DNA of 55,490 nt, taken from the IMG/VR virus record IMGVR_UViG_2872185964_000005; one strand, given 5' to 3'. The first letter of the stretch is position 1. Each line of letters opens with the position of its first letter. The notes beneath the pieces were generated by a model. That model saw only the letters and a program-made list of their open reading frames with translations, ran no database searches and was not told the DNA's origin. The translations under genes and the position numbers were made by a program. The stretch comes from a virus (taxonomy: Duplodnaviria > Heunggongvirae > Uroviricota > Caudoviricetes). Positions 46,764 to 48,337 of this stretch are shown piece by piece.

Positions 46764-46958
46764 ATGCATCAGAAAACAGCAGAACACGAACAAACCAGAA
46801 TATTGCTGACCATCAAAAACGGGAAAGTAATATTCATTCGCCATGTTCATGACGATGAACTTGTAGGAACTCTTTCAACATTCCTGTTTATTGCAGAAAA
46901 GGCAGGATATGACGTTATTGCACCAGCAGATGAAGATGAAGATGAAGATGAGGAATAA
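46764..46958 (+). CDS. Hypothetical small protein with polyacidic C-terminal tail (64 aa)
   Basis: MHQKTAEHEQTRILLTIKNGKVIFIRHVHDDELVGTLSTFLFIAEKAGYDVIAPADEDEDEDEE. Confidence 0.45.
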   Translation: MHQKTAEHEQTRILLTIKNGKVIFIRHVHDDELVGTLSTFLFIAEKAGYDVIAPADEDEDEDEE

Positions 46959-46963
46959 ATATC

Positions 46964-48337
46964 ATGCAATACGATGAATTCCAGGCTGAAGCAACAGCCA
47001 ATGGTATACGAACTGGCAGTATGACGATTGATTATCACGACGCCATACGTCGTCTGGATGCCGGAGAATTCGATACTCCTAATGTGCGAGGTTTACGTAT
47101 CCTTCAGTGTCTGGCGCAAGCCGACGAAGCAGGATTACTGGGTAAACTTCCGGTTGAGATGAAGGTTGCTCAGTGGCGATGGTTGTATGTGACGACGGTA
47201 ATGACTCCAACTTATTGATAGTGTTTTATGTTCAGATAATGCCCGATGACTTTGTCATGCAGCTCCACCGATTTTGAGAACGACAGCGACTTCCGTCCCA
47301 GCCGTGCCAGGTGCTGCCTCAGATTCAGGTTATGCCGCTCAATTCGCTGCGTATATCGCTTGCTGATTACGTGCAGCTTTCCCTTCAGGCGGGATTCATA
47401 CAGTGGCCAGCCATCCGTCATCCATATCACCACGTCAAAGGGTGACAGCAAGCTCATAAGACGCCCCTGCGTCGCCATAGTGCGTTCACCGAATACGTGC
47501 GCAACAACCGTCTTCCGGAGCCTGTCATACGCGTAAAACAGCCAGCGCTGGCGCGATTTAGCCCCGACGTATCCCCACTGTTCGTCCATTTCCGCGCAGA
47601 CGATGACGTCACTGCCCGGCTGTATGCGCGAGGTTACCGACTGCGGCCTGAGTTTTTTAAGTGACGTAAAATCGTGTTGAGGCTAACGCCCATAATGCGT
47701 GCAGTTGCCCGGCATCCAACGCCATTCATGGCCATATCAATAATTTTCTGGTGCGTACCGGGTTGAGAAGCGGTGTAAGTGAACTGCAGTTGCCATGTTT
47801 TACGGCAGTGAGAGCAGAGATAGCGCTGATGTCCGGCAGTGCTTTTGCCGTTACGCACCACCCCGTCAGTAGCTGAACAGGAGGGACAGCTGATAGAAAC
47901 AGAAGCCACTGGAGCACCTCAAAAACACCATCATACACTAAATCAGTAAGTTGGCAGCATCACCTGTGACGACATTCATCAACGAAGAAGAAGACAAGAA
48001 CGGCACAATTGATATCCTGAATGAACACGGAACAACTGAACACGGAACAACTGAACACGCCGTGGTATATAACGGGATGTATGGGTTTATGACGATATAT
48101 CCCGGCCCCATTCGATTTGCCTTACAACAGTATATTGAATGGAATTTAATTCAAAAATACGGCGAAGCTGAAGGAATGGGAAGAGCGCTGTTTCTTTATC
48201 AGAAAATGCTCACTACTTCCCCTGATAAAGGTTTCATTCTTTCAGATATGGGTCGAGAAGGGCTTGAAATCCTTCTGGATGAAATTATTAACGAAATGAA
48301 TACTCATGGCATGCAATCCGAAACAGATATTAAGTAA
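46964..48337 (+). pseudogene. Hypothetical gene of about 200 codons interrupted by IS1 copy 1
   Basis: ORF 46964-47218 runs into IS1; ORF 47951-48337 resumes in frame after the 9-bp TGTGACGAC duplication; tandem EHGTT repeat. Confidence 0.55.
47197..47964 (-). mobile_element. IS1 copy 1, 768 bp, 9-bp duplication TGTGACGAC
   Basis: Termini ggtaatgactccaactta... and ...gttggcagcatcacc; insA 47634-47909 and insB 47212-47589. Confidence 0.9.

Follow-up and report, generated by a model that had tools for sequence, protein, structure and literature searches.

What do two tightly coupled genes do when databases list both of their proteins as 'hypothetical' or of 'unknown function'? The question is raised by the IMG/VR virus record IMGVR_UViG_2872185964_000005, a stretch of 55,490 nucleotides that we refer to as the window, in which a small gene with an acidic C-terminus (gene A) lies 5 bp (ATATC) upstream of a larger gene (gene B, ATG at 46964) that is interrupted by an insertion sequence (IS) of the IS1 type. 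A sequence-only reading of the window had described a 64-residue protein ending in DEDEDEDEE that is encoded 5 bp before a second gene, a description borne out by the sequence, and had compared the pair to antitoxin/toxin and anti-restriction modules. Our analysis leads to a different answer. We consider it probable, though well short of certain, that gene A encodes a trans-acting antirepressor of the FsoA type, that genes A and B belong, as accessory genes, to the early-left (pL-side) operon in a defective, IS-riddled lambdoid prophage located at mlrA in a Shigella boydii-like host, and that gene B encodes a non-toxin belonging to an orphan family.

The product of gene A falls into phrog_340 of the PHROGs collection (E 1.4e-22), which is annotated there as 'unknown function', and has weaker matches to two 'anti-repressor' PHROGs (4792 and 2379), in their C-terminal parts; searches against Pfam, NCBIfam and PADLOC returned nothing significant. 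A profile search recovered 470 related small proteins of enterobacterial prophages, ~60-85 amino acids (aa) in length. A hidden Markov model (HMM) built from gene A homologues scores STM0898.2n of the Salmonella prophage Fels-1 with 73 bits (E 5e-24), the GfoA-type protein gp49 of mEp237 with 20 bits (E 1e-7), GftA with 9-10 bits and Rem with 5 bits. Lemire, Figueroa-Bossi and Bossi (2011, PMC3121763) mapped the antirepressor gene fsoA to an interval of the Fels-1 left operon, and primers listed in their Table S1 encode MNSQQMM and EAGIRFEEISNVG, precisely the sequences with which STM0898.2n begins and ends; this identifies fsoA as STM0898.2n. The same table identifies GftA as Gifsy-2 STM1020.1n, and the counterpart of GfoA is mEp237 gp49, which is encoded between dinI and a homologue of irsA/STM1020. 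By BLASTP, gene A and FsoA are 46% identical over a 37-aa core, in which they share the motif h-h-x-I-x-NG-x-V-x(3)-R-x(3)-DDE-x(7)-F-x(6)-AG, and an alignment of GftA, GfoA-like proteins, FsoA and gene A retains the NG, R, DD(E/L) and G positions in common. The earlier statement that neither product is recognisable thus fails for gene A, a homologue of a characterised antirepressor, and gene A is best read as a previously unannotated member of the already known FsoA/GfoA group of small antirepressors.

The genomic setting points the same way. Megablast searches of complete E. coli genomes and phage records identified the region as part of the early-left operon in lambdoid prophages whose integration site is mlrA/yehV, and the block also occurs in several Shiga toxin (Stx) 1- and Stx2-converting phages, in PhiR49_2 and in phiP27. 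In intact prophages the gene order is cI, a helix-turn-helix (HTH) protein, an L08-like gene, A, B, (a small MarR-like gene), DUF4752, Ea22-like genes, xis, int and mlrA. Gene A encodes a 64-aa protein with a profile match to FsoA, as expected of a small antirepressor, and lies between cI and xis/int, outside the immunity region, a position that by synteny is consistent with expression upon induction only. FsoA is likewise a small protein, with its gene in a left operon and a CI-like (S24) repressor encoded upstream. It differs from the gene A product in its length (78 aa), in a 20-aa N-terminal extension, in having no poly-D/E tail, and in its genomic neighbours, as fsoA is preceded by a gene termed P (described below) and followed by a gene termed Y, whereas gene A is preceded by the L08-like gene and followed by B.

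Published work on these relatives indicates what gene A may do. FsoA is produced from the Fels-1 left operon, is subject to the Fels-1 repressor and is inducible with mitomycin C, and expression of FsoA by itself from PBAD derepresses Gifsy-2, a heteroimmune prophage (PMC3121763). GftA and GfoA bind their cognate repressors directly, and GftA frees GtgR from its operator DNA (PMC3121763). Rem of Qin, which was found through searches with GfoA and FsoA, derepresses the DicA-controlled promoter dicBp (Ragunathan et al., PMC10448788). GfoA, GfhA and GftA (of Gifsy-1, -3 and -2, respectively) and Rem are proteins of 60-85 aa that share one broad family with gene A, and are antirepressors of the non-cleavable repressors GfoR, GtgR and DicA that act by stable, direct binding followed by release of the repressor from DNA (PMC3121763, PMC10448788); their genes differ from gene A in location, as they reside in LexA-controlled dinI-antirepressor-irsA units or at other places of the nin region and not in the left operon. 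By analogy, the gene A product would be made only once the CI-type repressor of its own prophage had been inactivated, and would then bind a short, non-cleavable repressor of the DicA/RacR/GtgR type, most likely that of another resident prophage. Removal of this repressor from its operator would couple the induction of the other element to that of the prophage carrying gene A. In the window, other IS elements have severed the operon from its promoter region, and IS1SD has disrupted gene B.

Several points weigh against this account. The identity of gene A to FsoA is just 46% and is confined to a 37-aa core, and at the scores given above its similarity to GftA and Rem is marginal. While the homology of gene A to FsoA and its position in the operon are seen directly, its activity and the repressor that it would bind in Shigella or E. 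coli are proposed by analogy. The experimentally studied relatives include no member with the E. coli-type sequence. Fels-1 induces normally without FsoA, so that the native role of FsoA is unclear (PMC3121763). A Foldseek search of the PDB with the gene A model found no analogue, the antirepressor family being one without a solved structure (over all Foldseek searches with the A and B models, the best E was 0.1-1.5 and TM scores were <0.35), and searches of PDB sequences with the gene A profile and with FsoA yielded no match. Gene B is characterised by family membership, composition and neighbourhood alone; its relation to P, a neighbour of many A homologues, is based on a moderate hhalign probability, and the constant adjacency of A to P or B that is described below could reflect shared operon ancestry. 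With gene A, and phrog_340 in general, linked to the FsoA/GfoA antirepressors, which were defined by experiment, a gene of many E. coli, Shigella and Klebsiella prophages acquires a function that can be tested; its carriers include Stx1- and Stx2-converting phages, in which prophage cross-induction affects toxin release.

In the AlphaFold2 model of gene A (predicted local distance difference test score, pLDDT, 82), a β-hairpin (residues 12-28) and a helix (residues 37-46) are followed by the acidic tail, which is disordered. The tail is encoded by a hexanucleotide repeat, and its length is polymorphic, with alleles of 60, 62, 64, 66 and 68 aa in E. coli and Shigella that indicate replication slippage. 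In other clades of the gene A family the poly-D/E stretch is missing and the proteins end in ...KEQTL or ...EEIGDINSNTNS. Judging from these alleles, the tail is a lineage-specific, slippage-prone repeat and no feature of the family. A separate lead from the name of one UniRef cluster, which suggested DUF905, was dropped, as hmmscan failed to reproduce the match; the DUF905 link goes back to a relaxed-BLAST match to YeeT and YpjJ, both of which are inactive on dicBp (PMC10448788).

Gene B can be restored on paper. Membership in IS1 was judged by a length of 768 bp, terminal inverted repeats of ~23 bp, insA and insB frames and a 9-bp target duplication, and the element within gene B has this length, canonical terminal inverted repeats, insA/insB and a 9-bp duplication. 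When it is removed together with one copy of the duplication (joining 46964-47196 to 47974-48337), an open frame of 198 codons plus a stop is obtained; the sequence-only reading was thus right that a single continuous frame is interrupted, and the frame amounts to 199 codons including the stop instead of the 200 that it had counted. The reconstructed gene is 99.8% identical to intact 193-aa genes of E. coli prophages. As judged from the sequence, IS1SD entered gene B at codon 78/79, and the insertion is recent because the sequence flanking IS1 retains this 99.8% identity to the intact alleles. The element shows 100% identity to IS1SD copies carried by plasmids of Shigella boydii and has no unusual feature, and the interrupted allele was found in no complete E. 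coli genome searched. The tandem EHGTT repeat noted earlier in the second gene was confirmed as a perfect 15-bp tandem duplication of 2.5 copies; it represents a strain-specific 5-aa insertion, as intact E. coli alleles have a single copy, and in the structural model it maps to a predicted hairpin loop between the strands formed by residues 89-93 and 99-107. Both proteins have numerous homologues, with ratios of non-synonymous to synonymous substitution rates (dN/dS) of 0.17-0.40, and the features of genes A and B are therefore not a product of chance.

The restored protein matches phrog_1515 over its full length (residues 1-197, E 4.7e-88), and its dN/dS of 0.17-0.23 indicates purifying selection. 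An exhaustive profile search of 1.84 billion representatives collected 102 gene B clusters, which consist mostly of stand-alone proteins of 190-220 aa. Their alignments contain the conserved motifs LDxGxYD, WRW, NG, YP..ER, IE and LS..GRE.L, as well as conserved positions R120, E128 and Y148. Most members end at a conserved histidine (...G-x-P-x-x-P-x-x-H-COOH), whereas the clade of the window ends in ...GMQSETDIK and its sister clade in ...GMPEGQ; the 3' end of gene B was probably exchanged by recombination at its junction with the MarR-like gene, as far as the alignments indicate. Gene B has an isoelectric point (pI) of 4.6 and a net charge of -15 over 198 aa (-13 to -15 across the family). 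Nothing significant was found for it in Pfam, NCBIfam or PADLOC, no Pfam family matched in a scan of 47 family members, and PDB sequence searches with the gene B and P profiles gave no match. The AlphaFold2 model is of good quality (pLDDT 85.8, predicted template-modelling score, pTM, 0.83), and Foldseek comparison with the PDB and BFVD yielded no match (best E 0.1-0.2, TM scores <0.3). A search of viral contigs with divergent single members of the family produced no loci, and literature searches by accession, PHROG or Pfam identifiers found no match. The homology and structure searches that the sequence-only reading proposed for both products have thus recognised gene A as a member of the FsoA family and left gene B an orphan with an unmatched fold. 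Gene B is an acidic, stand-alone protein of ~22 kDa that belongs to a rare orphan family of enterobacterial phages; our best guess is that it acts early as an accessory factor that binds protein, perhaps as the antirepressor's partner or modulator, and that it is not a toxin.

The genes surrounding A homologues were compared by HMM scans of 24 loci. In eight independent loci (E. coli, E. marmotae, Stx-phage and phiP27), B directly adjoins A, the two genes either overlapping by 4 nt or lying 5 bp apart, and P is absent; the tight physical coupling of the two genes that had been read from the window is thus conserved well beyond it. The gene for P (phrog_1737, ~120 aa, without an annotated function) lies directly upstream of fsoA-type genes, its stop codon overlapping their start codon (e.g. 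at 2717-3082, 4156-4515 and 3974-4333 of loci L004, L005 and L016, respectively). Six loci have the order P-A-(X)-(Y)-B (Klebsiella-type phages, phi467 and CharmingMan), with one or two genes between A and B in the Klebsiella-type phages; Fels-1 and Salmonella loci have P-A without B, AsXd-1 has P and B without A, and three A homologues in dinI or nin regions have neither P nor B. Over its whole length P aligns with residues 67-185 of gene B (hhalign probability 59-65%, E ~1e-4), which makes it a probable paralogue of the C-terminal two-thirds of gene B. Since P resembles this part of B, A abuts a P-like-domain protein in every left-operon locus (19 of 19; P-A in 11 and A-B in eight), and this constancy suggests a functional partnership. 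It falls short of proof, because FsoA works alone and the synteny may be inherited. Other candidate relationships were discarded: gene A is not related to part of B (hhalign probability 1%), an apparent B-A fusion in P0071 has an extension with an E of 2.2, and comparisons found no relation of phiP27 L08 to P or B, or of phrog_5215, which is encoded upstream of a nin-region A homologue, to gene B. Together, gene B and P form a small, unexplored family of constant left-operon neighbours of these antirepressors, and work on their structures and interactions would be reasonable.

The alternative that survives best takes this adjacency further and holds that A and B (elsewhere A and P) are an obligate module, in which the P-like protein binds the antirepressor as a chaperone, specificity subunit or anti-antirepressor. 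It can draw on the unbroken adjacency in the left-operon loci, on the frequent 4-nt overlaps at the junctions, which are consistent with translational coupling, and on the probable paralogy of P with residues 67-185 of gene B. We nevertheless think it unlikely, as FsoA alone is sufficient to derepress Gifsy-2 (PMC3121763), the dinI-linked members of the A family (GfoA, GftA, mEp237 gp49, 705R4 and BUCT708) have no P or B nearby, AsXd-1 dispenses with A, no fusion of A with B was found (the extension in P0071 being insignificant), and adjacency may be a matter of inherited synteny. The general form of the idea, that FsoA-type antirepressors and a P-like-domain protein (P or the larger B) make up the two halves of a conserved module, is in our estimate equally doubtful; if true, such a module could determine when cross-prophage induction takes place, or which targets it reaches, in polylysogenic E. 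coli, Shigella and Salmonella, with Stx phages included.

An anti-restriction or anti-defence role, in which gene B or the tail of gene A is an early-made DNA mimic or an inhibitor of a host nuclease or defence system, is less probable still. Its appeal lies in the position of A and B in the early-left operon, in the acidity of both products and in the fold of gene B, which matches nothing in the PDB or BFVD. Lambda, P22 and related phages have ral, gam, abc and kil in their early-left operons. The comparison to Ocr and ArdA is suggested by the fact that these are also acidic early proteins of phages or plasmids, but they differ from A and B in sequence and structure and have a much higher charge density, beside which the net charge of gene B is modest and weighs against DNA mimicry. 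No homology to Ocr, ArdA or ArdB-KlcA emerged from Pfam, PHROGs, PDB sequence searches or Foldseek searches with the A and B models, and neither in sequence nor in fold do A and B resemble any anti-restriction or anti-defence protein solved in the PDB. The family does not conserve the acidic tail of gene A, a repeat of variable length, and gene A is better supported as an antirepressor. With no family match in Pfam, NCBIfam or PADLOC and no DNA-mimic fold in the PDB or BFVD for the gene B model, the anti-restriction suggestion of the sequence-only reading has no positive support beyond acidity and position in the early operon.

Far less probable again is the other module it had suggested, a type II toxin-antitoxin pair in which A is the acidic antitoxin and B a toxin that IS1 inactivated, for although a small acidic gene is positioned 5 bp upstream of a larger one as in ParDE and RelBE modules, gene B alleles are frameshifted in several genomes, and the A homologue of Klebsiella-type phages is followed by an overlapping gene for a ParE-like protein, gene B is acidic, unlike typical type II toxins, and it has no toxin family in Pfam, NCBIfam or PADLOC and no toxin fold in the PDB or BFVD, A occurs without B (Fels-1, Salmonella) and B without A (AsXd-1) whereas true modules co-occur strictly and have their own promoter, the genes are situated within a repressor-controlled left operon with no autonomous promoter signal (promoter-like sites upstream of gene A in the intact locus occur at background frequency), and the characterised homologue of gene A is an antirepressor and no antitoxin. 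The IS1 copy in gene B needs no selective explanation because the whole prophage is ridden with IS elements. The ParE-like protein itself, X, is 72 aa long (Pfam ParE_like, PF24732, E 3e-19) and its gene overlaps with the 3' end of the preceding A homologue, an arrangement confined to Klebsiella-type phages (L010 5374-5589; L023 3685-3903), in which FsoA-like proteins may double as partners of ParE-like proteins.

Table 1. Features of the A/B locus and of the surrounding prophage (window positions; L001, intact E. coli locus; TRF, Tandem Repeats Finder)
Feature	Position	Strand	Description
Gene A	46764-46958	+	64 aa, C-terminal ADEDEDEDEE; FsoA-family small antirepressor homologue, phrog_340
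Hexanucleotide repeat (AGATGA)x4	46928-46951	+	encodes DEDEDEDE; TRF
Gene B, 5' part	46964-47196	+	codons 1-78 of 198; phrog_1515 family
Target-site duplication, left copy	47188-47196		9 bp, TGTGACGAC
IS1, IS1SD type	47197-47964	-	768 bp; insA 47634-47909, insB 47212-47589
Target-site duplication, right copy	47965-47973		9 bp, TGTGACGAC; perfect direct repeat flanking IS1
Gene B, 3' part	47974-48337	+	codons 79-198 and stop; phrog_1515 family
Tandem duplication in gene B	48022-48059	+	15 bp, perfect, 2.5 copies, EHGTT-EHGTT; TRF
MarR-like winged-helix gene	48348-48596	+	82 aa; HTH_24, MarR_2, phrog_1687; annotated in Stx1 phage 14040
phiP27 L08-like early-left gene remnant	45223-45470	+	phrog_5451; 3' end gone; window 45202-45470 = L001 5608-5876
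Truncated IS2-like (IS3-family) element	45471-46680	-	orfA/orfB, rve and HTH_21 domains
Native sequence upstream of gene A	46681-46763	+	83 bp; homology resumes at 46681 = L001 6001
IS3-family element, three copies	17233-18543, 23767-25076, 43892-45205		1.31 kb
IS66-family elements, two	12620-16548, 18570-23766		inverted orientation
Second IS1SD copy	53583-54350		inverted relative to the copy in gene B
Another IS	1-662 and 50669-51331		

Further features of the window are listed in Table 1. The window was aligned to an intact E. coli locus that served as a reference (L001), and outside the damage caused by IS elements and deletions the two are collinear and 98-99.8% identical. Upstream of gene A, the L08-like gene that precedes it in intact prophages persists as a remnant, the translation of which matches phiP27 L08 and the H1 68-aa protein. 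The remnant ends at the IS2-like element, at whose junction 124 bp have been deleted (L001 5877-6000), and this element parts gene A from the upstream left operon. Downstream, the MarR-like gene begins 11 bp past the gene B stop; it follows B in some Stx1 phages and lies outside the A and B families. RefSeq left this winged-helix open reading frame (ORF) unannotated in the intact E. coli locus. It is followed by the DUF4752 gene (48586-48903), whose product has a predicted N-terminal hydrophobic segment.

Taken as a whole, the window (1-55490) is one defective lambdoid prophage at mlrA that has accumulated at least nine IS copies. Beside the second IS1SD copy, ~1.19 kb that are present in intact E. 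coli prophages have been deleted, which removed xis and the 5' part of int, so that the prophage cannot excise. The copy of IS1SD in gene B retains matching target duplications, and no inversion between the two IS1 copies has therefore occurred. The gene for the cI-type (LexA/S24-like) repressor (42340-43070) is split into two ORFs of 160 and 88 aa, in place of the single 218-aa protein encoded by a 99.5%-identical E. coli locus, and thus is apparently frameshifted. With gene B destroyed, the operon severed from its promoter region and cI frameshifted, the A/B locus of this window is a dead relic without functional consequence. The exact gene A protein is UniProt B2TZ29_SHIB3; because of this match, the identity of the IS1SD copy to those of S. 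boydii and the lack of an interrupted allele among complete E. coli genomes, the decayed prophage most likely resides in a host chromosome that is S. boydii-like. The window also carries a NanS-p-like gene for a sialate O-acetylesterase (SASA and DUF6645 domains) at 29277-30542; genes of this kind are characteristic of the late region in Stx-converting phages.

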